Shown: in pieces, positions 44,112 to 64,000 of the stretch | Position numbering within the stretch: the first letter of the stretch is position 1 | How the letters are laid out: each line of letters opens with the position of its first letter | Source of the DNA: Schmidtea polychroa | Lineage: Eukaryota | Direction of reading: 5' to 3' | Length of the DNA: 64,000 bases | NCBI GenBank assembly: GCA_044892525.1 | Contig: CM097886.1 | Coordinates: 142,104,001 to 142,168,000 of the forward strand | The notes under the pieces: generated by a model | Told to the model about the DNA's origin: nothing | Databases searched by the model: none | The model's input: only the letters and a program-made list of their open reading frames with translations | Translations under genes and position numbers: made by a program

Positions 44112-46592
44112 TCAGCTTTGACACTGTTCCCCTTTCAACTGCTCCTTAAGCTTCATCAATTCTGCATATCTTATCTGTAGCTGATTCTCTCGAACCTTTT
44201 GCCGATCAACATCCAATTCCAGCGCTTCAATCCGATTGACAATAGCTCTCTGTTCTTGCTCCCTGATCTTATTCAGTGAGCAAAGCTCGATTTCATTGCG
44301 CTCGATGTGGTCATAAACGTCCGTCACAGCCTTCTGCAGCAGCTTAGATCGGGCCATGTATCCCCCGAACAGAGTCGTCAGTTTGTCTTCTTTCTTTTTC
44401 GTCTTCTTCGTCATCTCGATATACTGAGTCGTATACAAATCCAACAGATGCTTATAGGATTCGATCCGATCCTTCCTACTGACGAGATTAGCCCTCGTGT
44501 ACCGCTTTTCACTGGGGAAATAGAGAACCTGTGCCCTGCACTCCTCCCAGACCTTTGTAAATGTTTCCTCGTTAACGTCTCCGTGTCCCATTTCTTTCTT
44601 TATCAACTCCATTTCACTTTTTAATAGTGCTTCGACATTTTTCAACTCTTCTTCACTGAATTCTTCGAAATGATTCGAGTCCAGGAATCTGTTGCTGTCG
44701 GCTATTGATTGCTCCATAAGTTTCCGACGTTCCCCGGTCGACATTGCCGTGTATTTGCCGGTTGTTGGGATATCGATCGGGTTGAGAATATTGTCCTTGT
44801 GCATCATTTTGATCATTTCCAATTTCACCAATTCGTCCGCTCGTTGCGAGTCCGTCAATGGCGGGTCACCTTGTTGCGGGGGCGGTCGTAAGATTGAGTG
44901 ATTGATTTCCGTCGGTCTCGGTAGGTTTCGTTTGATGACTTGGCTTCGTTTCTCCCACAGCGCCGCTTCCAATTTCTTTCGTTCACTTTCTTTCATTCTA
45001 TCGATATCGTCTTGATCCATTATTTCGCCGGATGTGCCGAATTTTTCAGAATTTTGAGTTTCCATTCGCTCATCAGCGGGTTTTGATTGTTCATTTATCG
45101 ATTTGGGATCTTTGTTCGGTATTGGCATTTGACTGAGATTCTCTTGTGTGAGTTTTTTCTTGTGCACAGAGTTGAATTTGGCCCCATCTCTGCCTAAACT
45201 GAGATTTGGCGTGTTGAAATTTGATTGGCCACCTGGAGTGCCGAAATTTGATTGTTCGCCAGGATATCCGAGTAAATTTCTTCTCAATGACGTGTTTGGA
45301 GTTTCTCCGGCTTGCAATTGATTTCTGTCCACAGAATTCAAGTCGTATAATTCTGGATTGTTTCCTCCTAGCAATGGGGTCTTAGTGTAATGCAATGAAC
45401 GAATATTTTCAACTTGCATTGCCAGTCGATTTGTAGATGCCATTGGAGTTTTATCCGGTATTATCGTGCTGGCTTTCTCTCGTTCCGACATATAACCACC
45501 CAGCAAATGCGATGTAGATACTAAACCTTCAGTGACCGCTGCATGAAGAGTTGCATGAAGAGTTGCATCGTTCTCGTGGCTCATTTTTAAAATCGTATGC
45601 ATTTCTTCTTCGCTGATTTTCGGTTCTGATAACACAAGTTTGCTACGCTTGATTTGATTATCCTTCATTCCTTTATGGATTTCACCGGGAAGGTTTTCTT
45701 CTTCTTTCTTTCTCTTTAAATCAATATCTTTTTTCCTTTCTCTTTTTTCACGTTCTTCTCTCGTTTCAAATTCTAATTCACAGACTCGTTTTCCAATAAC
45801 ACTGTCGGTTGTTTCGTATTTTTCTTGGCTTGTGTCGTGAAATCCTTTGGGAATTGGTTGATAAAATGGAATTTCTTCACTGTAATTTACACCAGCGCGT
45901 TTTTTGTTACTTATACTTCTGCCAATAATACCAACCTCAGCTAATTCTCTTTTCTGTTGAACAGCGGCTAATCTTCTTGCCATTATTAATTGTCTTTCTC
46001 TACCTTTTCGTTTAGCTTTCTTTCCTTGGGTATTGGCAAGTCTAGCTCGAGCTTCGTTTAACATATCAATTTCATCTTCAGCCATATCAATTGGATCAGG
46101 TTTGGCTGGTCTGCTTTCTGGTCGCAAATCATTATCATCTGCTCTTAAAGTGTCAAACTCGCCAACTCCTTCTTTAGCAGATCTTGTAATGTCAATCAAA
46201 TGAGAATATTGCTGGACACATTGAGCAGCAGTTCTACCTATTATATCCGAAATTGTTCTCCATTGAGTTGGTAAAACTTTTCCCAAATGTAGAAGTTTCT
46301 CATTTTCTTCTTGAGTCCACTCTGTCTTTTTCACTGTTGGCGAAAGCCACTCATACCAACGAGCTTTACATTGCTTATCTGACTTTCTATGAAGAAGAGA
46401 TGCAACTCTGGCCCATTGATTAGTTCCATATTTCATAATAGCAGCTTTCAAAACTTCATCCTAAAACATTTAATAAAGGATTAATTAGTAAAGTTATTAA
46501 TTGAAATAAATATATGAATAGAAATTTATTATTAAAATTTTATATATTACCTCTACATTAGTCCATACACCACCTTTTAATAAACGACCCAT
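44112..46592 (-). CDS. CDC5L: Cell division cycle 5-like pre-mRNA splicing factor (Myb repeats), 2 exons
   Basis: Exon 1 46592-46551 (MGRLLKGGVWTNVE), 90-nt GT-AG intron 46550-46461, exon 2 46460-44112 (DEVLKAAIMKYGTNQWARVASLL...KQCKARWYEWL...RARLANTQGKKAKRK...). Uninterrupted to TGA. Confidence 0.97.
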
Positions 46593-48906
46593 TTGAATAA
46601 AAATTGACTACAATTTCTTAATCAATTGCTAAACAAATAGAATTTAAAATATCTACTTTACCAAGATTATTTAAACAAGTTTAATAAAATTATATATCTT
46701 TATAAATAGATTGATTAACTAAAGTCATAAATTATGTGAGTCAAGGACATAGTTGATAAATTGAATGCTATATTTTTGATTAAATTTATATTTTATAATA
46801 TATTTAATTTGTGTTTTTAATGAATGGAAACTTGGATTTTTCATGAATCTTTTTATTTATTGTTCATATTCACATTACGCCAAACAGCAATTGATAAGTG
46901 TATTTAGGACATAATTAGTACTGAAAGTTTACCATTGACTAGGTCTACTGACATTGATAATGAATTACTAAAAATATATTAATAACTGAGTAAGACACTG
47001 AGTAATATATTTTCGTTTATTTATTTTTTGATCACGCTTTTATTGTTAATGGTGTACCAGAAAAATCTGTTTTTCTTTAAAAAGACCTACCTTAACTCGT
47101 TCATGTTAAATGTCGATAAAAGTTACGTTTTCTTGACAATATTGGTAAAAATTGTGATGAAATGAAATAAAATCTATTGTGTTACGTGTCATTGTTTTAA
47201 TTCAACTAAAGAACAAGTGGAGTCAAAGTGTGGTACAGACTTTATAGTAATAGACTAACATATTTGTGTTTGTTAAAAATTATTAAGCAAAATTGGAAGT
47301 AATAAAATTAGTTAGAAAATGATCCAAATAATTTTTATTGACAAGAGTGCTTATTAGATTTTTAAATAAATATTTTACCTTTATTTTGTATAATTCCAAG
47401 ATAAATCTAAAATTTATTTTTATTAAATTAAAAGTCTTAAAACCAAGTACGTAGCTAGCGTGGGCATAGGGAACATTTGCCCCTTCCCCAAATAAATTTC
47501 AGATCATCAAATATAAATAAACTTTAACTTAAGTCAAATTTTAACATTACTCGATGATTTGCAATAATTAATAATTTTGCCCCCTCCCCAAAGTTGAAAT
47601 CCTGATTACGTCCTTGCTTAAAACTAATCATGAAATCACTTTTAAGATACATTTAAAATAAGTTATTACAGTAAAAACTTATTACAAAAAAATTTCCCAT
47701 CAAAACTCTAAAAGAAATAAAATCACAGGAAAATTAAAAGTTTATGTTAGGTGTATAGTAGAAAATGTATCTTACTACGTTACATATCTTTCATTCCCAC
47801 AACATCAAAAGGAATCATCACTTGTAGTCATCATCACAAACACCGCTGGTCTTGTGTCGTAGTGGGTGGCTGTCAGAAAAATATGAGCCTTATTTCTAAG
47901 ACTGCTAATGTCCTGTTAAGTTGGTTTCATGGGTTTACTGTAGAAAGTGTAGTGCCATAAATTATTACGCCTTGTATTATGCAACCCAAAAATCTACCAA
48001 TATCAAATATGACTAAATAATTGACAATGATAACGAAATAAGAAATTAACAGTTAAATAAAAAAACTAGAGACAAAATTAGTTAAACTGTTTGGTCTTAA
48101 CTTATTGCTTTTATAATTTGACCCAAAGTTTAGTTCTATTTTAATTACCTCGTGTGATGTCGCTCGGCTTTCCTCGGCCTTAATTTCAAATGAGATTTCC
48201 TGTCGGTAGTCAGAGTTGAAGTTGGTTCAGTCAGGTCTGGGAGCGGAAAATAATTCTTGTTTCTACTACGATGAACTAGATTGAAGTTCTTTATAAATAT
48301 GTTGATTGATTAGATGTTTCAAAATTGATTCAAATAACAATGCGATTTACCATTTGGACTAAAACTATATAAATCATCCTTCTATATAAAGTTGAATTAT
48401 TAGCATTGTATTGGTACGGAATAAATCTTAGGAGTATTCCTATGTAAGGTATGTTTGCTAGGTTTTAATAATTCTATGACAAGTCAACACATTAGGAATA
48501 AACAGAAGATAATTCAACACACTAATAACTCAGCACCCTGTTTAATTTACAAAATCGTTATTACACCTAACTTTAATCTTAAAAAATCAATAAATATATA
48601 TATATATATATATATTTTAGGAACACACAAACTTACCTGTGTGTAAAAATTTAATGCTGCGAAAGTTAACATATTTATTATAGGAATCTAAAAAGTGAGA
48701 GAAAATAATTAAGCATACAAACACAGCACACACAATGAAAAATACATACAAAATTAATAAAGTGTTTTTTTTTGCGAAATTAACATTGATTAACATATAA
48801 TTAACATATAAATATTTTCAAATTATTTAAAAAGTTATGCACAAAAAAACTTTTGAATCAGATTCCGACTGCTCTACCTTGAGCTTTAGAGAAAAAGAAG
48901 AAAATA

Positions 48907-49158
48907 AGTAGTGTGTATATATACCCAACCCAAACAGCCCTCCCAACAAAAACATACCTCCATTACGCTTAAACCATTAGAAAAACAACATGAAACCTAT
49001 GTTTTTATAGTATTTTAACCCCATATTTTAAACAACAACCACCCTTAATCTTTAAAGCCTCAAACTCAAAAGCTTCAAACTAAAAAGAGAATAGAAAAGA
49101 AAATGGCATTATGAAAAAGTTAGAGGGCTATTTGGGATAGGGCTATATACACACTACT
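48907..49158. mobile_element. 252-bp element bounded by imperfect ~37-bp inverted repeats starting AGTAGT
   Basis: Left arm AGTAGTGTGTATATATACCCAACCCAAACAGCCCTC; reverse complement of right arm AGTAGTGTGTATATAGCCCTATCCCAAATAGCCCTC. The first 15 bp are identical. No 6-bp TSD (AAAATA vs GATCGT). Confidence 0.7.
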
Positions 49159-49240
49159 GATCGTAATCAAACTCCGGAGTTGATCTTTATCAGATTATTG
49201 ATTTTAAATTATATAAATTAAAAAATAAATGAAAAATAGT

Positions 49241-49297
49241 AAAACTGCTCTGAGGGGACAGTGGTATTTTTTTTTTCACTGTCCCCTCAACAGTTTT
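49241..49297. other. Strong hairpin followed by a T-run
   Basis: TGAGGGGACAGTG (49251-49263) pairs with CACTGTCCCCTCA (49277-49289); extended by AAAACTG/CAGTTTT. Confidence 0.8.
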
Positions 49298-49606
49298 TTT
49301 TGATCCGGATCATTTCAACCTCTTTCGTTTATCAAATCTCTTCTAATATACAAGCTGGCCATACTCATACATCAGAATCAATCCGATAATAGCAGCACAC
49401 CTTATTATTCGCTTCTCGCTCGAATACGATTTCATCGGCGTTTTAAGCGTGCTGCTCGAAAGTACAAATGAATTCGAAAGTGAATTCGAAAGAGGTCCGA
49501 AAACAACTGAGAAATAAATGTGCACATTAAAGAATCGATCCGGGGGTGTTCGAAAGACAGGTGGCGATAATTACCGGTTCGCCACCATCACCCGTTTCAA
49601 TAATTT

Positions 49607-49736
49607 NNNNNNNNNNNNNNNNNNNNNNNNNNNNNNNNNNNNNNNNNNNNNNNNNNNNNNNNNNNNNNNNNNNNNNNNNNNNNNNNNNNNNNNNNNNNNN
49701 NNNNNNNNNNNNNNNNNNNNNNNNNNNNNNNNNNNN
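49607..49736. other. Assembly gap (N run)
   Basis: Run of N. Confidence 1.
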
Positions 49737-49790
49737 AAATCTAAGATACCCACACTATTATTTTCAAATTTTTAATATTATTTTATGTTG

Positions 49791-49872
49791 AAAAAAAACT
49801 AACCACAGTTAGGATTTGAACCGCTATCCATCTGAACCACGGTGCCAGTCTAGCCCACTGCGCTATCTAGGA
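49791..49872 (-). ncRNA. tRNA-like Pol III unit 1
   Basis: A box TAGCGCAGTGG, B box GGTTCAAATCC, then GGTTAG and T8. The cloverleaf pairs poorly. Confidence 0.55.
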
Positions 49873-50119
49873 TTGGATTTTTGTCATTTTTTATACTATA
49901 AATAATCGATTCAAGTTCTTTAACTCTTTCCTGTAATTGTTTCATTTTCTTCAATCTTATATCAGCAACATCTACAGCCTTCATATAAAAATGTCGATAC
50001 TTTTCATTATCTACCATCAACTCTTTGATGTATTCTAATGGTTCTTCTTCTCTTCTTTTTATTCTCTTATGTTTAACTTCATTCAATTCATTTCTCATTC
50101 TTTCTTTTAACTCATCCAT
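49850..50119 (-). CDS. 89-aa charged coiled-coil protein, probably element-encoded, function unknown
   Basis: Clean ORF with ATG in TATAAAAATG context. Its last codons overlap the A box of unit 1. Confidence 0.5.
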   Translation of the reverse strand: MDELKERMRNELNEVKHKRIKRREEEPLEYIKELMVDNEKYRHFYMKAVDVADIRLKKMKQLQERVKELESIIYSIKNDKNPILDSAVG

Positions 50120-50275
50120 TTTTATAAATATTTTTTTTATTGGATATATTAATTTTTGCTGGTTAAAACGTTTTTGATCTTAAATTTCCAAGAGTTGCCG
50201 TTGACCAATCACCTTAAAAATTTGTACAAGTACTAAATCGAGTATGCTGATCAATATTTCGTTAAAAAAAATTTG

Positions 50276-50351
50276 AAAAAAAATGACCGAAATGGGATTT
50301 GAACCCATTGGTATTGGCAATGCAGTCGAGTGCTATTAGAGCTATACTCAA
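50276..50351 (-). ncRNA. tRNA-like Pol III unit 2
   Basis: TAGCTC start of A box; perfect T-arm ATGGG-TTCAAAT-CCCAT; then TTCGGTCA and T8. Confidence 0.6.
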
Positions 50352-50504
50352 TATAAAATAAGTTGTTAATGTGTTACTATTTATTGATGAAATTAATAAT
50401 TAATTATTCATTTTCTCGACAACTACCACTCAGATCCATCTGAAAATTTAAATATATACTAAAATCAGTACGCTGAATCAGATTCCGTTGAAAAATAAAT
50501 ATCG

Positions 50505-50586
50505 AAAAAAATTGACCAAAATCGAAAATTAAACCCGGTACTCCCGGTGATAAAATTGAAGCCTATTCCCACTCCGCTATATTGGC
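50505..50586 (-). ncRNA. tRNA-like Pol III unit 3
   Basis: A box TAGCGGAGTGG. Acceptor-like stem GCCAATA/TTTTGGT pairs 6/7 including G-T. Degenerate B box GGGTTTAATTT, then GGTCAA and T7. Confidence 0.5.
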
Positions 50587-50642
50587 TTACATAATGTATT
50601 TAATTAATCCTATTTTGTGTGTGTAAATTTTAATATATAAAA

Positions 50643-51929
50643 ATGAATAATATAAAAATTCAAGAAAAAAATAAATTAAATCTTGATTATAATAAAGAAT
50701 TTACTCATGAAATCAAGAAAAACGATGTACTTAAAATCTCCCCAACTTCAGGATCTATTGCAAACTTAAATCGTAGGGGTGATATAGTTTTTCAATCTCT
50801 TCAAACATCAAACCCTATAGATATTTGTAATGCCAAATTATATTATAAAATCGAATTAGAAATTGAAGCAAACAAAGATATAACCCTAGAAAATAATTTC
50901 TTTCCAAATTTATTCTCCAACATGAGATTAAAACTAGGATCATCAGAAATTGAAACTGTTTTACATCCAGGAGTATATTCTACAATGTTAAATTTTATTT
51001 TAACTGGTTGTGATTATAAAAACGAATATGGTGAATTAACAGGCTGGATTCCTGATGTTAATAAAGGAGATTTAGATAAAGATGGTTTAGATATAAATTA
51101 TGGTTACTATAAAAGAGCTGAACTTTATAAATCTAAAAAATTTGAAGGTTATTTTGAATTAAAACACTTATTTGGATTCATTCAAAACTATAACCGTATA
51201 CTTCATAATGTTTTTATAGAATTCATCTGTAATAGAGTAGAAGGTGATAAAAGATTGTTCTATGGAGCTGCAGATACAACAGCTAAATTAAAAATATCAA
51301 CACTTGAATTGCATATACCTGAATGAACATAAAATCCACATTCTGAAATCAAACTCCTTGAAAGATTAAATTCCAACAAGTCTATAAATGTAAATTATTT
51401 AAATAGAATCTGTAGTGAATTTAGTATGACAGAGGGTTCAACATATTCTATAAAGGTAGCAAATTTAGCATACCGACCAAGATATATCTTGATTGGATTC
51501 AAAGAAGTAGATTCATCTTTCCAAAAAAATAACAACTTGTTTATTCAAAAGATTGGGGTTGATAATTTAAAAACAATCCAAATTCAATTAAATAGTTCTT
51601 ATTATCCAATAAATAGAATGGAATTTAATATTGAAAATAATGAAAACATATTCCCATATCTAAATTATATTGAAACATGTTATGATTTCAAAGTTGAACC
51701 GCAATTAAGTTTAGAAGATTTCAAAAACTTATATTCTATATTTTGTATAAATGTTTCAGACCAAGATGATCGCCTAGCCATAAATAATGTTGATGTTACA
51801 CTTCATGTAACAAAGGATTCTAATTTTAAAGCTAAAGTATATACATTAATATTAGAAGAAAAGAAAATAGAAATGAAATTATATGGTGGAAAGATTTCAA
51901 TAATCGAAAATGTTAGGGGAGATTCTTAA
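50643..51929 (+). pseudogene. Polinton major capsid protein (double jelly-roll), two in-frame stops
   Basis: ORFs 50643..51326 and 51426..51929 share one frame and are separated only by TGA (51324) and TAA (51330). Motifs LENNFFPNLFSNMRLKLG and RPRYILIGF fit recalled Polinton MCP patterns. Confidence 0.8.
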
Positions 51930-54981: not shown

Positions 54982-56298
54982 CACTAGGACGGCCAGAGCG
55001 GTCATTTTGACCGTTAAGCAATTTCATTTTTATTTTGTGAGAAAACGAAAAGGAATTACCGTCTCATATTTTGTGACAATTATTCATTTTTAGTGAACTT
55101 GTTGTGCATATCAAAGCTTCAATTATAGCATTTGTCACGACTGAGATAATGAGGCCATCCCCATGGAAGGCCGAACCGGTCAATTTGACCGGTATCTTGA
55201 AACACACAAGAAAGTCACACATAATTATCTTACATACTAGAAAATATAAAACCAAATATAATTTACACACAACCGAAGCATTTAACAGTCATTTGGGAAT
55301 GTTTTCCACAGTAAACTTTACTACATACATGGCATATAGCTCCGGATTTGTTATCACAATGAGGAGCAGAACAAGTTTTTCGCTTCTTTAATTTTGGTTG
55401 TTCAGAACAGAGTTCACCAGAGATGGGACTTGCTGTTCGACGGCTTTTGAACTCCTCACAAAGAGATGTAGCTAATTCAAAAATAAAATCCCTTCTTTTT
55501 ATAGTTGATCCCGTAGCATCTTTGAAAATAACATGAGCGTTGAGAGCTGCTTTATCAAGCAAATCATAGAAAGTAGCGACTGGCCATCTTGCTGTTGCGG
55601 CTTTACTGCTGTATAAACGCAACATGCTATACATGGTATCTACAGCTGTCTTATTTGTGTTATAAAAGTGTATCATTTCAGGCTTTCTCTTTTCGTCAGA
55701 TCTCACACTAGCAGTAGAATGGAATGTTGACATGACAATGACTTTCTTGTCCGATTTGCCTTGATAGGAAACAGTGACAGTGTTTTGACACGATAAATGA
55801 GTCGATTCAAAAAGAGGCTTTTTCTCCAAGTGAGCTGATGATAAAAAGCGTGAATTTAATCTTACAGTACCAACCAATGTTGTTCGATTTACAAGGAGAT
55901 GTTCAGCTAGTGAGAGACTTGTAAAGAAATTGTCAGTGCAGACATTGTATCCTTTATTGAAAAATGGCTCCATTAGTTTCCTGACTACAAAATCACCCAG
56001 CCGTAATCCACAGCGTTCGTTTCTATCGTGAGCCCCTAAATATGGCATTTGATTGATGACAAATTTGGTTTTGACATTACTGAGAATCCAGTATTTGATA
56101 CCGAATTTATCAGGCTTATTTGGCATAAATTGGATGAAGCAACACCTATTTTTTAGCGGCAAAAGTTGCTCGTCGACAGTAAGGAAGGGATTAGGAGTAT
56201 AAACTTGAAGACAGTTTGAAAATAAGGAGCATATGTGCACCGGTCAAATTGACCGTTTTGGCCTTCCAAGGTATAAAATATTTCCGGCCGTCCTAGTG
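54982..56298 (-). mobile_element. piggyBac element, 1317 bp, internally deleted
   Basis: TTAA duplication at 54978-54981 and 56299-56302. Perfect 13-bp TIR CACTAGGACGGCC. Internal palindromes CGGTCA-N3-TGACCG at ~54999, ~55178 and ~56241. Confidence 0.96.
55263..56240 (-). CDS. piggyBac transposase lacking its N-terminal part
   Basis: TVDEQL, TDNFFTS and AVD (the three catalytic Asp positions) plus a C-terminal Cys-rich domain (CSAPHC...CHVCSKVYCGKH). Confidence 0.9.
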   Translation of the reverse strand: MHICSLFSNCLQVYTPNPFLTVDEQLLPLKNRCCFIQFMPNKPDKFGIKYWILSNVKTKFVINQMPYLGAHDRNERCGLRLGDFVVRKLMEPFFNKGYNVCTDNFFTSLSLAEHLLVNRTTLVGTVRLNSRFLSSAHLEKKPLFESTHLSCQNTVTVSYQGKSDKKVIVMSTFHSTASVRSDEKRKPEMIHFYNTNKTAVDTMYSMLRLYSSKAATARWPVATFYDLLDKAALNAHVIFKDATGSTIKRRDFIFELATSLCEEFKSRRTASPISGELCSEQPKLKKRKTCSAPHCDNKSGAICHVCSKVYCGKHSQMTVKCFGCV

Positions 56299-56906: not shown

Positions 56907-57392
56907 ATGACTCCTTCAATATTAGATTTTTTAAAAACATTTGGAATAAATGCAAAAACAAATTTTGATTTAAAAGATTATGCAGATTATTTAAATTTAA
57001 AAATAAAAATATTAATGAATAATGAATTGAAAGGTCCGAAGGTCAAAGGTCAAAGGGTCACTCCAAAGAATATAATAATCAATTATCAAAATTCAAATGA
57101 AAAAGGATCTCATTGGGTCTGTATATATATGGACGAAGTCCCAATCTACTTTGATTCTTTTGGGATTAAACCCACTAAAGAAGTTGAAGACTATCTGTCC
57201 GGAGTAAGCTCGAAGAGAGACTATACTTTTAATTCTTTACAAGTTCAACCTAATAATACTAAAATATGTGGTATTTTAAGCTTATATGTTTTGTATAGAT
57301 TGAATAAATCTCAAGGGACTCTGTCCAAAGGGGACTACTGTTTCACTTCCTTAATCCAAAAAATTTATAATGATTTAAAATCTCTACTATAA
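56907..57392 (+). CDS. Adenain-like cysteine maturation protease, 161 aa
   Basis: GSHWVCIY, YFDSFG and Q....CG give the H-D-(Q)-C catalytic set. Intact; overlaps the upstream stop (ATGA). Confidence 0.92.
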   Translation: MTPSILDFLKTFGINAKTNFDLKDYADYLNLKIKILMNNELKGPKVKGQRVTPKNIIINYQNSNEKGSHWVCIYMDEVPIYFDSFGIKPTKEVEDYLSGVSSKRDYTFNSLQVQPNNTKICGILSLYVLYRLNKSQGTLSKGDYCFTSLIQKIYNDLKSLL

Positions 57393-57395
57393 GAA

Positions 57396-58133
57396 ATGGA
57401 AGATAATTTAAAAAAAATGGTAAACATAATGTCAGATAAATATTCAAGAACTTTATCTATAAATTCAAAAGAATCAGACTTTACTATAAATTTTGAAGAT
57501 TCAATAAAATTAGATCAAAATTTAAATTATGAATTAGGTCTATTATGGTTTTGTGCTTATAATACTATTTTTAATATAACTAAAGATATTAACACATTTA
57601 GTTATGTAAGCCCCCCAAAAACGGAGTATAACATAATAATAATAGAACCCGGGGCTTATGAGATAAAAGATTTAAATAATATACTTTCTAAAAAAACAAA
57701 TGGAGCTATTGAAATTAAAATAGATTTACCAACTTCAAAATGTATAATGACTTTAAAGAATATAGGACTTAGGTTTCAAAATAATAGTTTCTTTAGAACA
57801 ATTTTAGGATTTACACAAAACCATTATACCACACCTGAAGTTACATCAGAAAATATTATAAAAATAATAAATACAAACACAATAAATATTCATTGCGATT
57901 GTATAACAGGTTCTTATAATAATGGTAAACAAAGTAATATTTTATATTCCTTTCCCTCAACCACAGTTCCTATGGGATATAAAATAGTTGAAAGAATGAA
58001 TCCTCCAAATTATTTACCTTTATGTAGAAAATATATAATGGATATTAATTTTAAAATTCTTAATCAAGAAGGAGAATTGATTGATTTTAATGGAGAAGAG
58101 ATTTCAATGTATTTACATTTGAAACAGGTTTGA
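57396..58133 (+). CDS. Polinton minor capsid protein (penton, single jelly-roll), 245 aa
   Basis: PGAYEIKDLN, INIHCDCITGSYNNGKQSNILYSF and IDFNGEEISMYLHLK match recalled Polinton penton motifs. Intact. Confidence 0.85.
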   Translation: MEDNLKKMVNIMSDKYSRTLSINSKESDFTINFEDSIKLDQNLNYELGLLWFCAYNTIFNITKDINTFSYVSPPKTEYNIIIIEPGAYEIKDLNNILSKKTNGAIEIKIDLPTSKCIMTLKNIGLRFQNNSFFRTILGFTQNHYTTPEVTSENIIKIINTNTINIHCDCITGSYNNGKQSNILYSFPSTTVPMGYKIVERMNPPNYLPLCRKYIMDINFKILNQEGELIDFNGEEISMYLHLKQV

Positions 58134-59846: not shown

Positions 59847-61814
59847 TCAGTTATGGTTGAAAGCCAACCTTTGAATCATTAATTTATGATCTTTAAATTC
59901 TTTATCACTTAGACCTTTTATATATTCAGGATCAGTATTAAAATATTTAAGTTCTAAACATATAGGATTAAAAACTTGAGAATATAAAGGCTTCTCGATT
60001 TCTCTCTCGGGATAAATGATTTCAACATTATAAATATCAAGATCAGTAATTTTTGTATCATATAACTTATTCAACTTTTCTAGATTTTTTATTATCGGTA
60101 TTAAATTATTTCCTATAGGAAGAGTTGTCTTTAAATCACTTAGGATGAATCTCTTATCATCATAATTTGATAATGATACTTTTTGAGATTCTATCAAGTG
60201 AATATCATGATTTTCGCTTTTAATCTGATGCACTTCATCAATTTTATCTTTATGATTTGGATTCAATGTATCTATATAATCTTGATGAGAAAGATTCTTT
60301 GCAACGGATTTCTGTATTCCTTTACATCTGTTATCCTTTACAGGTTTTTCTTCTTGTCCCTCTGGTCCTTTAGGGAATATAGGATATTTAAATGAAATAA
60401 TTTCCTCTTTTTCTGGGGTTTTAAATATAATTTCTCGGGTTATAAATTCAGGGTTTTTAAATGTTTCGTATAAATATTGTTTAGCACGAATAAATATTCC
60501 ATTTTCTATAGGAGTAAAAGGTTTTTCATCTTTAAATGAAAATAATTCTCCAGTTGAATTTATTAAATTTGAAAGTGTAGGATTTTCAGCTATATCTCTT
60601 TGTAAATCATGAGTTCTTATTGTTAAAAACATTGAATCTGTATCCATTGCATGCATTGATATATTAGAACCATATATAGGTTGTAAGATGTTATAATATG
60701 TTTCATACATTTGTAATTTTGAAAGTTCTAAAATTGAAAACCCTATAAATATTGGTTTGTTGTATGTTTTCTCAAAACTCTTTAGTTCTATTGCAGTAAG
60801 ACTTTCAGAAAATACTTGTGCGTTTTTAAATGTAGGCTTTCCTAGCATACGATTATAACGCTTAATATCTTTGGCAGTATAAGTTAGGAGTTCAATATGA
60901 GTATATTTATCAACATTCTCCATTGTCTTCCCAAAGACTGAATTGTTTAAAAGTTTATAATTATTATCTTTAAAAAGGTTACCTTCTCTTTTTGCAATGT
61001 TTCGACATCTAATGTTCTCCTCGATAAAAGCTTTCATGAATGGCCTCTGTTTAAATCTTATGACACTATGAACTTTTTTTAATATCATACCTCGTGAAAG
61101 ATAAAATTGGAGGAGTCTATAGTGACAAAGATAAAACCTTCGATCTGTTTGATCACAAAGAAGTTTCATTGTTGGGGGTTTATCTTGTGAGATTTGCCAT
61201 TCAGAAAGTTCGTTGATATCAATCTTTCTTCTTACAGGAGCTAATGGGAAATATCTTGTTCCTGATTTTATATCATCTGGATATAATAAGTCACATTCTA
61301 CAAAGTAACCTATTGGAGAATCTTTAGGTGTTGAAAGTATTTCTTTTATAAGTTCTTTTGATGATTCTATTTCAATGAAATCACCCATTGGCAAATATTG
61401 AGTCATAATTCCTGAATATAAAGCTGTTGCATCTATATAAAGTATAAATATAGGATTTTTCATTGTTTCTAATATTTCTTTTAATTCCTCATTGTTAATT
61501 TTTATATATGGATCAGAGGTCTTTGAAAGCATTCTGCTAGTAGTTATTGCATTTCTAGCTTTTATTTCTCTATTCCCCATTACTGAAGAGACTCCTCCTC
61601 TAATGTTTGTTTTAATTAGATTAAACATATCGAGGTTAGTTAAAAGATCTATAATTTTATCAGCTTCTTCTATATTTGAAGTCCAAATGGTATATAATAA
61701 AGTATCCCAAGCTAAAGAGGGTGCTGTCATATAATTGTAAGGTTTAAGAACAAAAGATTTTGTAAATTCTTCAAAGCAATCTGCTAGAATATAAACATCC
61801 AAGGATAAATACAT
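59847..61814 (-). CDS. Protein-primed family B DNA polymerase (polymerase domain open; upstream part decayed to ~62040)
   Basis: YIDATALY (motif A), KLLNNSVFGKTMENV (motif B), MDTDS (motif C), KGIQK and NYDDKRF. Upstream CKTLGEY is in frame, and further frameshifted remnants lie towards 62040. Confidence 0.93.
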   Translation of the reverse strand: MYLSLDVYILADCFEEFTKSFVLKPYNYMTAPSLAWDTLLYTIWTSNIEEADKIIDLLTNLDMFNLIKTNIRGGVSSVMGNREIKARNAITTSRMLSKTSDPYIKINNEELKEILETMKNPIFILYIDATALYSGIMTQYLPMGDFIEIESSKELIKEILSTPKDSPIGYFVECDLLYPDDIKSGTRYFPLAPVRRKIDINELSEWQISQDKPPTMKLLCDQTDRRFYLCHYRLLQFYLSRGMILKKVHSVIRFKQRPFMKAFIEENIRCRNIAKREGNLFKDNNYKLLNNSVFGKTMENVDKYTHIELLTYTAKDIKRYNRMLGKPTFKNAQVFSESLTAIELKSFEKTYNKPIFIGFSILELSKLQMYETYYNILQPIYGSNISMHAMDTDSMFLTIRTHDLQRDIAENPTLSNLINSTGELFSFKDEKPFTPIENGIFIRAKQYLYETFKNPEFITREIIFKTPEKEEIISFKYPIFPKGPEGQEEKPVKDNRCKGIQKSVAKNLSHQDYIDTLNPNHKDKIDEVHQIKSENHDIHLIESQKVSLSNYDDKRFILSDLKTTLPIGNNLIPIIKNLEKLNKLYDTKITDLDIYNVEIIYPEREIEKPLYSQVFNPICLELKYFNTDPEYIKGLSDKEFKDHKLMIQRLAFNHN

Positions 61815-62399
61815 ACTTGTATATTCTCCTAAAGTTTTACACTGGACGTTTTTTTGTTATGATGTTTTGTGAGTATTTGATATATGTTTCGACTTGATTT
61901 TAAGTATGGATTAAATAAATTGAATTAATAAATTAAATTTTATCGGTTGGTACGTAATAATGTGTCTTTAGGGAAAAGCACGTGCCCGTTGCAATTTACG
62001 TAATTGAGGAGAGAGCTGCTCGGTTAATAAATTAAGTATTATTCTGATAAGTAGGAAGTAGGTAGTTAGTGGCCCGCGGCAGCAATAGGGGGGGGGGTAA
62101 AAAATGTTGCAAACTTTTGATTGCATAACTTTTTCCGTAGACATTTTTTGATTACATAATTGTTGCCGTAATGCCCAATGTTTTCTGGGATTTTAAATAC
62201 AAATTTTTTTTTTTTTTTTTTTTTTTCAATAAACAAGCCAAGGATAAATATTATTTGGGTGGGTCTCCTTGGTCCTGAGAATTTCAATAGAAAAAGGTAG
62301 TCTTCAATAAAAAAGCATGGATTTTTCACACTATAGTGAGGGGATCTTCTTGGTCATGAGAATTTCAATAGAAAAGGTGGTTTACATTAAAAAACGCAT

Positions 62400-62900
62400 A
62401 GTAAATTTTTAAAATAAAGTAAATTATGGGTCTAAAATTTAAAAATAAAGTAAATGATGGGTCTAAAAATTTAAGTAAATCAAGGTTCAGATTTATTTTT
62501 GAAATAAAGTAAATTATGGTCTAAATAAGTAAATTATGGGCTAAGATTTTTCAATTAAAGTAAATAATGGTTCTAAAAAATTAAATTACAGTAAATTATG
62601 GTCCAAATTTTTAAATTAAAGTAAATTATGGTTCTTAAAAATTAAATTAAAGTAAATTATGGTTCTTAAAAATTAAATTAAAGTAAATTATGATCCAAAT
62701 TTTTAAATTAAAGTAAATAATGGTTCTAAAAAATTAAATTAAAGTAAATAATGGTCCAAATATTTTAAATTACAGTAAATAATGGTTCTAAAAATTAAAT
62801 TACAGTAAATAATGGTCAAAAATTTTAAAATTAAAGTAAATTATGGTTCTAAAAATTAAATTAAAGTTAATTAAGGTCCAAATTTTAAAATTAAATAATC
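62400..62900. repeat. ~31-32-bp AT-rich minisatellite, roughly 15 units
   Basis: Unit approximately AAATTAAAGTAAATTATGGTTCTAAAAAATT, with variants. Confidence 0.85.
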
Positions 62901-63185
62901 AATGGTAAAAAAAAATTTAAATTAAAGTTAAATAAGTAAATTAAAGTAATAATTTTTAAATAAGTAAATTAAAGTAATGTAATAAGTAAATTAAAGTAAG
63001 ATTTTTAAATTTATTAACAAAAATAGAAGGTGTTTGAGAATTGAAATTTTTTAATGGAAATTTTAATGAATTATTTTTTAAGTAATTTTTAATAGAAATT
63101 TTTATGAATAATTTTCAATGGTAATTTTTAATGGAAATTTTAATAGAATAATTTTTAAGATAATTTTTAATGAAAATTTTTATGA

Positions 63186-63186
<1 letters not shown>

Positions 63187-63243
<57 letters not shown>
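63187..63243. repeat. (TAA)n microsatellite
   Basis: Direct reading. Confidence 0.95.
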
Positions 63244-63247
<4 letters not shown>

Positions 63248-63357
63248 TAATATTAATAATATATCAACCAAATACTATACAACACATAAAAAATTAACTA
63301 AACACATAAAAATTTACCAAATAACAAATGTAAAGATATAAAATTTATTCAATAAAA

Positions 63358-64000
63358 TTAGTCCTCATCGGACAAAATAACGTCATCGATATCGATGTCA
63401 TCTTCTCCAAAATCTTCATTTAATTCTTCCTCATCTTCTCCATCATTTTCTCCAACATTTTCTGAAACATTTTCTGCAACAATTTCTCCAACATTTTCTC
63501 CAATATTTAATTCACTTAATCTTACATGCCCATATGCAAGACTAGTATTTTGCCCCACCCAAACCCTTTTGTCATCTTTGTTAGTTAGTGCTATTTTTGT
63601 GTTTTTAATTGTAAAAATTTGATGATTTTTGCTTGTTATTTTAGTCTGAGGAACCGAAAAAATCTGGTTAGTGTTATAACAATCCAGGTATGACTGATGT
63701 TTTATGTCACTACCTTTCAATGTTACACCTTTAGCCTTTTTTGTTTCCTCATCACCCAACAAGCTATAACATTTAGGTCTAAGAAAAACCCACTCCTTAT
63801 ATTTAAGACCTTTATTCTCGTCTTTGAACTTTCCAATGACTGAATCAAGGTTCTTACTATATAAGGAATGACAACTATTGTAATTGGAAGTATCCAATAA
63901 ATTATCTCGAACCATTGCAGGTAAAAGAACCTCAAGTTTGCAGTTAATGACTTCGAGGAAAAAAGAATCTGTATCACCTGCAACGATATTAATTTTACAA
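63358..64000 (-). CDS. C-terminal part of a second, divergent protein-primed PolB (runs off the window)
   Basis: The frame is open from the window edge: AGDTDSFFL, LDTSNY, GKFKDE, FLRPKCYS, KAKGV, DDKR, then an acidic tail. Confidence 0.9.
   Translation of the reverse strand, partial: CKINIVAGDTDSFFLEVINCKLEVLLPAMVRDNLLDTSNYNSCHSLYSKNLDSVIGKFKDENKGLKYKEWVFLRPKCYSLLGDEETKKAKGVTLKGSDIKHQSYLDCYNTNQIFSVPQTKITSKNHQIFTIKNTKIALTNKDDKRVWVGQNTSLAYGHVRLSELNIGENVGEIVAENVSENVGENDGEDEEELNEDFGEDDIDIDDVILSDED

Follow-up and report, generated by a model that had tools for sequence, protein, structure and literature searches.

The terminal inverted repeat (TIR) of a Maverick/Polinton in the planarian Schmidtea polychroa carries a module of two minus-strand units, a short tRNA-like Pol III-type unit (U3) and a longer candidate gene for a structured RNA (R4). 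The window analysed here, 64,000 nt of contig CM097886.1 (positions 142,104,001 to 142,168,000), had initially been annotated with a cluster of three short tRNA-like units (U1, U2 and U3) that were regarded as candidate VA-RNA analogues, a set which is incomplete as the fourth and longer unit, R4, lies just outside its coordinates. On balance the units appear to have two origins, with U1 and U2 being passengers from the host rDNA spacer and U3 and R4 forming an end-repeat module in which R4 would be a functional Pol III RNA. It is R4, and not the three short units, that is the putative counterpart of VA RNAs and TMERs. The features are listed in Table 1.

Table 1. Positions of the element features in the window
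Feature	Position	Strand	Remarks
Left TIR, ~1 kb	48907-49897	+	contains R4 and U3; recurs inverted at the opposite end in L084, L088 and L090
R4, 359-nt structured RNA gene candidate	49241-49599	-	~190 bp past the U3 terminator
Long R4 hairpin, pre-miRNA-sized	49329-49389	-	helices 4 and 5; 24 pairs counted; 94-97.5% of cells paired
R4 helix with the clearest compensatory changes (helix 3)	49392-49455	-	7/10 pairs change on both sides
U3	49791-49872	-	tRNA-like unit of Pol III type belonging to the element itself; inner TIR edge; A box 49865-49855; B box 49822-49812; T8
89-aa element ORF	49850-50119	-	no Pfam match; stop codon within U3; missing from some subfamilies
~470-bp piece common to the element and the host rDNA intergenic spacer	50157-50631	-	contains U1 and U2
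U2	50276-50351	-	rDNA-spacer subrepeat; A box deleted in the window copy; B box 50305-50295; T8
U1	50505-50586	-	rDNA-spacer unit; A box 50579-50569; B box damaged in the window copy; T7
Double-jelly-roll major capsid gene	50643-51929	+	PF21738 on both parts; two frames here, 50643-51326 and 51426-51929
Protein-primed family B polymerase, C-terminal part	59847-61814	-	PF03175

The element and its surroundings

The element starts at window position 48907, with the homology of sister copies stopping at 48902-48936, and its right end is interrupted. Pfam matches in the window comprise a protein-primed family B polymerase (pPolB, PF03175), a double-jelly-roll (DJR) capsid protein (PF21738) and a PLA2-like domain (PF08398), and those in the sister copy L083 an rve integrase (PF00665) and an A32 packaging ATPase (PF04665). 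A 6-bp target-site duplication flanks the sister copy L089/L090, one of two pairs checked, the other having a damaged left end. With TIRs, 6-bp duplication, pPolB, rve, ATPase and DJR capsid all present, the element is a Maverick/Polinton. The capsid gene, which is split in the window copy, forms in most sisters a single reading frame some 431 codons long, and the PLA2-like domain and the rve integrase make up one ORF in intact sisters (L083:6815-8176). Two further ORFs (56907-57392 and 57396-58133), which we take to be candidates for the adenain-type protease and the penton, are without Pfam or PDB match and have homologs in metagenome relatives. The initial description of the element as adintovirus-like is reasonable, with membership of the adintoviruses being tentative. 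A PLA2X gene (PF08398) is present and fused to the integrase in L083. At the N terminus of pPolB the Pfam sequence profiles, run to E 0.05, find no OTU domain and show a C2H2 finger.

The element is abundant, with 2679 DNA candidates and 2821 capsid candidates in the genome and with one junction motif matching 1602 times where a control matches 34 times; its copy number is on the order of 1,600-2,800. A protein search of the genome for further element families gave results dominated by the main family. Further on, the window copy is broken by a nested second element of about 14.8 kb (window 62057-64000 to L082:2833), which has long inverted repeats and carries a different pPolB in two inverted copies, and in which no other long ORF and no Pol III-type unit was found. 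The Maverick also contains a small DNA transposon (55161-56271), the inverted ends of which measure 33 bp and which has a DDE_Tnp_1_7 (piggyBac-like) ORF. At 44112-46436 on the minus strand lies a CDC5L-like splicing-factor gene, made up of one 774-aa ORF that encodes Myb and Myb_Cef domains and is intronless over this span. The tip of the TIR carries a 39-bp inverted repeat (48904-48942 and 49123-49161, 180 nt apart) resembling fold-backs in other end types, and such TIR-tip fold-backs are perhaps tied to the initiation of replication.

Three short tRNA-like units

U1, U2 and U3 are co-oriented on the minus strand at the positions given in the initial annotation, and much of what it said of them stands: each has TAGC near tRNA position 8 and a T-run terminator (T7, T8 and T8), the B box GGTTCAAATCC is present in U2 (50305) and U3 (49822) as its sole strict matches in the window, and none forms a full cloverleaf, with ARAGORN calling 0 genes and folding z-scores of 0.01, -1.34 and 0.19 for U1, U2 and U3 against shuffles. 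The Rfam tRNA model matches U2 only, with a score of 16.8 bits where the cut-off is 29. The shared 3' end GGT(C/T)A holds for the three units of the window and is not kept in diverged U3-type units, and a location between a small ORF and the capsid gene applies to U1 and U2, while U3 is a part of the TIR and covers the stop codon of the 89-aa ORF. The three units align without gaps and have a common AGTGG(G/T)AATAG-like D loop. All three occur together in 19 of the 19 nearest sisters, the comparison that had been suggested for them, and a pattern of B box and T-run has 4500 and 19051 overlapping matches genome-wide against 9 and 4 for the reversed pattern. The three units are more than a product of chance. 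Both U1 and U2 are damaged in the window copy, where a 12-nt deletion takes out the A box of U2 that five of five long sister stretches have, and where U1 has lost a C of the B box that is kept in 16 of 19 sisters.

Stand-alone dispersed copies of a tRNA-derived SINE were not found among the 14 places behind the first 30 pattern loci, which represent one chromosome end; eight of these places are Maverick, one is an rDNA spacer, four are spacer remnants (three beside 28S pieces) and one is unclassified. No A/B/T unit was found at 24 metagenome loci with capsids 25-52% identical, most of these loci being short and without termini, and a search of a viral-contig collection for relatives gave no match.

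Origin of U1 and U2 in the rDNA spacer

The stretch shared with the host rDNA (50162-50631) is found in six of six spacers sampled, and the identity between the spacer L219 and element copies is mostly 95-97.7% (range 89-98%), with 94% for the window copy. All six spacers contain an extra unit, U0, together with U1 and one to three U2, arranged in 243-bp steps and antisense to the rRNA genes, and in none of the six was a TIR, U3, R4 or element ORF found. Loci with tandem U2 are rDNA. The loci L132:9295-L133:762 and L215-L219 are rDNA spacers with 3-5 degenerate tRNA-like Pol III-type units, which may have a barrier or spacer-transcript role in the host. In four spacer remnants (L134-L141) the 3' half of U2 directly adjoins a non-LTR-like element, with a 28S piece near three of them.

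On the side of the element, the diverged sisters L164, L173 and L184 have an empty site without the ~470-bp insert, and among the first 100 of the 1602 junction matches 85 are filled, ten are empty, one is joined straight to U3 and four are unrelated. The piece sits outside R4 instead in three copies. The Maverick at L234 is only 2.4 kb away from an 18S gene, on its upstream side, and thus elements and rDNA do meet. These comparisons make it very probable that U1 and U2 were captured from the rDNA spacer as passengers, with transfer having run from rDNA to element, while the likeness of the D loops of U1, U2 and U3 leaves room for an older transfer from element to rDNA. The four boxes of U1 and U2 in 56 distinct element inserts have 0.0078 changes per cell against 0.011 (GC) and 0.0072 (AT) elsewhere, a comparison of low power in which the boxes of the element copies give no sign of selection. 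The initial annotation had itself named SINE or host copies and absence from sister elements as speaking against RNA genes encoded by the element, and for U1 and U2 this is what is found: they are subrepeats of the host rDNA spacer, missing in many sisters and without box selection in 56 copies, and as element-encoded RNA genes they are not supported. The lineage that bears the insert dominates the expansion of the element, a dominance for which neutrality alone does not account.

In the comparison with host tRNAs, U2 reaches z 7.4 against tRNA-Cys and 6.2 against tRNA-Lys, and its anticodon arm is like that of tRNA-Cys(GCA) in 11 of 12 letters, 7 of which are part of the search pattern. It is this match in the anticodon arm alone that favours tRNA-Cys over tRNA-Lys for U2, and no parent tRNA was assigned to U1 or U3 in the same comparison. 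The Rfam search for the host tRNA set gave only the Lys and Arg arrays, with Cys being found by pattern. The host genes for tRNA-Lys, -Arg and -Cys and for SRP stand in long tandem arrays (L051, L074, L235, L241), with about 1000 matches for Cys.

U3 in the terminal repeats

As U3 lies within the TIR, complete copies carry it at both ends, facing outwards. A U3-type unit is present within 1.25 kb of 18 of 30 capsid loci picked by HMM, with one or two per end, and subfamilies have one or two tandem U3 modules per end. In diverged Maverick families (capsids 31-49% and integrase/PLA2 40-55% identical) the A box, the B box, their tRNA-like spacing and the T-run are kept and the middle is replaced. 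Only two of the five pairs of the T stem are present in 23 of 34 representative U3-type units, in an alignment whose rows were chosen by their boxes, which is circular, and in which 4 of the 34 are of the U1/U2 type. Because boxes, spacing and T-run are kept and the T stem is not, the conserved part of U3 is a promoter and a terminator rather than the shape of a tRNA.

A full U3-type unit lies upstream of 73 of 76 R4 starts, and the test for such a unit is passed by none of the 76 opposite strands and by none of 1520 shuffles; among the 76 rows some overlapping loci are perhaps counted twice, and the diverged rows were partly found by a unit-bearing query. In 30 diverged copies picked by R4 alone the upstream U3 is full in 12, partial in 5 and unrecognisable in 13, the last group being old with some copies truncated or duplicated. 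The initial idea of a Pol III-type unit borne by the element is, at the level of sequence, borne out for U3, which occurs in both TIRs and keeps its boxes across families. A further tRNA-like sequence, L266:6760-6835, which we take to be a tRNA-Tyr-like gene with an intron, lies 460 bp outside a Maverick end and is not called by ARAGORN; it was rejected as an element unit on account of this outside position.

R4, a structured RNA gene candidate

R4 has an A-box-like word at 49584-49574, a B-box-like word at 49541-49532, a terminal hairpin and T4 at 49244-49241, and an internal T4 at 49503-49500 (+97). Both words are kept in most copies. We take their fit to the consensus to be loose, with one mismatch in the A box and a B box of the GATC type. 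The folding z-score of R4 is -8.3 on the strand of U3 and -4.8 on the opposite strand, and the sense fold is better than the antisense fold in 12 of 12 homologs. For 61 named pairs in an alignment of 12 copies pairing stands at 94.5%, as opposed to 35-43% when slid, and two-sided changes affect 11 pairs against 7.4 in shuffles (8/500) and 34 cells against 14.0 (0/500), with further pair types not being above shuffles (455/500). An independent alignment of 11 copies yields 102 pairs, 93% paired, of which 21 have two-sided changes against 4-6 when slid; the controls for R4 overstate significance, the structure having been derived from the same, related copies, and most of the two-sided changes trace back to a single split that separates two family groups, so that they represent few independent events. 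G-U outnumbers A-C by 98 to 15 cells, an excess which would point to a minus-strand RNA. The bases +59-63 are predicted to form a helix with +289-293, and a predicted 5' helix, which varies across families and is absent from U1-U3, pairs GGGU with ACCC at the 5' end. R4 matches no Rfam family in the window or at six diverged loci, and an origin from SRP was rejected at an alignment score of 102 against 95.8 +/- 8.6 for shuffled sequence.

The sequence of R4 suggests that it is probably transcribed by Pol III. According to an extract of PMC3141230, T4 stops human Pol III efficiently in vitro, and an efficient stop at the internal T4 in the R4 of the window family would cut off the covarying part. 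No T4 precedes +150 in 11 of the 30 diverged copies, and these T4-free copies, together with the helix between +59-63 and +289-293, make a full-length R4 plausible, for which read-through would be needed in the window family. Among assembled contigs on the sister L087, one X8 contig spans L087:1081-1356, across the internal T4 of R4, and X1, X2 and X7 contigs join across U1/U2, as in insert-free subfamilies. Of the five presumed RNA runs, four have their greatest summed contig depth over R4 and the fifth has nothing, and three runs of unknown type take a flatter course; contig depth cannot rank the parts. A match to the mir-753 precursor (L150:2557-2617, E 6e-11) lies 1.1 kb from an old R4 copy and has look-alikes in L220 and L151; the remaining loci that bear the module have no counterpart to it, and it was counted as flank, not as part of the module.

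Sister elements without the module

Twelve unit-free capsid loci (11 distinct) were followed, of which eight have other short left ends, and in all eight neither R4 nor U3 was found within 20 kb downstream. Six of these eight show both TIRs, which are 95-99.7% identical. The existence of recent complete sisters without U3 and R4 makes the module an accessory, and as such sisters have no unit of this kind beside the capsid gene they weaken the initial suggestion of a Pol III insulator for the capsid promoter. The sisters L244-L270 have capsids 85-97% identical, pPolB 52-61% identical and unrelated short TIRs, and the switch near the capsid start (about 50625) is evidently the result of modular recombination among families of Mavericks. 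The U3-R4 module adjoins the PLA2/integrase gene in diverged families.

Proposed function and alternative explanations

Planarian Polintons are piRNA targets according to a part of PMC8532177, which provides the motive for an anti-silencing function. It is proposed that TFIIIC at U3 and R4 would recruit Pol III, resulting in outward transcription from both ends of the element, that partial read-through of the internal T4 of R4 would give forms of ~100 nt and ~360 nt, and that R4 would act as a long, largely double-stranded decoy RNA which titrates host small-RNA silencing factors. Taken on its own, the anti-silencing role is the single most likely function of R4, tentative as it is with somewhat less than an even chance. 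The chances are even that U3 acts mainly as DNA, as a landing site for TFIIIC/Pol III and a terminator that feeds or shields R4, with its ~75-nt transcript being a by-product. In its furthest-reaching form the proposal is a doubtful one: a Pol III gene present in both TIRs of an animal Polinton lineage would make a structured RNA of ~360 nt by which small-RNA silencing in the host is suppressed, and this would be the first counter-defence RNA of VA type known from a Polinton. Its module would be swapped between families, recruit rDNA Pol III cassettes and have helped the element to reach thousands of copies.

R4 may instead be a TMER-like Pol III precursor, the long hairpin of which is cut to a miRNA-like RNA that regulates genes of the host or the element. 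This is unlikely, even if the hairpin at 49389-49329 is conserved in sequence too, having 94-97.5% of its cells paired and few two-sided changes, and if the internal T4 resembles the alternative terminators of TMERs (extract of PMC4337559). R4 has however no Rfam miRNA match and its 5' domain has no cloverleaf for cleavage by tRNase Z, while the strongest covariation is in another helix and L149 is without 13 nt of the 5' arm of the hairpin. tRNA genes can act as chromatin barriers, and the units might work as DNA in the form of TFIIIC/Pol III-bound barriers or nuclear anchors at the ends, with the fold serving single-stranded replication intermediates. Such a role would suit the boxes that U3 keeps without a fold, the symmetry of the TIRs, the expandable number of units, the presence of two different tRNA-like cassettes at one site and the antisense orientation of the rDNA-spacer units to rRNA. 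It is rendered improbable by the excess of G-U over A-C (98 against 15 cells), which points to RNA from one of the two strands, by the position of the module beside the PLA2/integrase gene in diverged families and by complete sisters that lack it.

The optional nature of the module, and the proof from U1 and U2 that the site captures host DNA, would also be in keeping with everything including R4 being neutral cargo that stems from a host locus for a non-coding RNA which has gone unrecognised, but the compensatory changes arose between element families, R4 is not SRP-derived and matches no Rfam family, and no host-gene copy of R4 was found in 40 scored of 713 candidates, a search swamped by element copies, so this reading is given little credence. 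Least credible is the initial reading of all three short units as VA-like element RNAs, for which the boxes and terminators intact in most sisters and the presence of U1/U2 in about 85% of the junction-matching copies listed would speak, and against which stand the rDNA-spacer DNA of U1/U2 without selection signal, folds no better than shuffles and unit lengths of about half that of VA RNA; its U1/U2 part is already largely refuted.

The preferred candidate, the conserved and covarying non-coding unit of the end repeat, offers a concrete and assayable object for asking whether endogenous Polintons actively counter host silencing, with the module-free sisters as natural controls.

Comparison with known systems

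In 5S-linked rDNA, Pol III genes are located inside rDNA spacers. The 45S spacer of S. polychroa is similar in carrying Pol III-type units antisense to rRNA, which unlike 5S genes are degenerate tRNA-like subrepeats of 243 bp. No description of tRNA-like units in rDNA spacers was found among the matches listed from open-licence PMC and bioRxiv texts, and these subrepeats would constitute a separate small novelty.

The element resembles animal Mavericks/Polintons and the Alpha-type adintoviruses, as characterised in excerpts of PMC8502044, in its TIRs, 6-bp duplication, pPolB, rve, A32 ATPase, DJR capsid and PLA2-like domain. Unlike the Alpha type of these excerpts, it has PLA2 and integrase in one ORF and, by Pfam, a C2H2 finger and not OTU at the N terminus of pPolB. 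Maverick expansions are described for Dugesia in a part of 10.64898/2025.12.11.693146. The word 'noncoding' is absent from PMC8502044, and no description of Pol III or VA-like RNAs in Polintons was found among the matches listed from open-licence PMC and bioRxiv texts. Passages of PMC12220804 and PMC8502044 describe ordinary tRNA genes in Polinton-like and MELD viruses, which thus share with the present case a Polinton-type element with tRNA-related sequence. The tRNAs of those protist elements are detectable by ARAGORN and Rfam and are read as codon compensation (PMC12220804, in the same passages), whereas the units described here fail ARAGORN and Rfam and accompany a long structured unit.

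The TMERs of murine gammaherpesvirus 68 (MHV68) are also a tRNA-like Pol III cluster near a genome end, and the weak internal terminator of R4 followed by hairpins is reminiscent of them as they are portrayed in extracts of PMC4337559 and PMC3141230. TMERs use alternative terminators (PMC4337559), and their tRNA-like 5' fold is cotranscribed with miRNAs (PMC4337559, PMC3141230). Unlike TMERs, U3 ends in T8 and is separated by ~190 bp from R4, which has boxes of its own and no cloverleaf. The T8 of U3 and the separate boxes of R4 speak for two units of transcription.

VA RNAs are ~160 nt in length and have apical, central and terminal domains with a GGGU-ACCC stem in the central domain, and PKR, the main VA target, is not known from invertebrates. 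The VA RNA model is not among the Rfam matches to E 10 in the window or to E 5 at six diverged loci. The units here differ from VA RNA in being either ~75 nt without a fold or ~360 nt and in being located in TIRs. The initial term 'VA-RNA analogue' suits the neighbouring R4, which like VA RNA has long stems, better than it does the three short units with their lack of a conserved fold. According to a part of PMC7589676, VA RNAs are Pol III RNAs with boxes A and B that are thought to derive from tRNA genes, and the likeness to adenovirus VA RNAI/II would consist of A/B boxes inside the unit, a T-run and probable tRNA ancestry, in a linear dsDNA element which belongs to the same broad lineage. 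The adenovirus VA arrangement of box A, box B and a T4+ terminator is found fully in U3 and loosely in R4, and is damaged in U1 and U2 of the window. In its working the module would come closest to VA RNA or to the TMERs of MHV68, and it belongs to neither class. If the proposed role of R4 is true, Pol III small-RNA genes of the VA/TMER type would be extended to Polintons.
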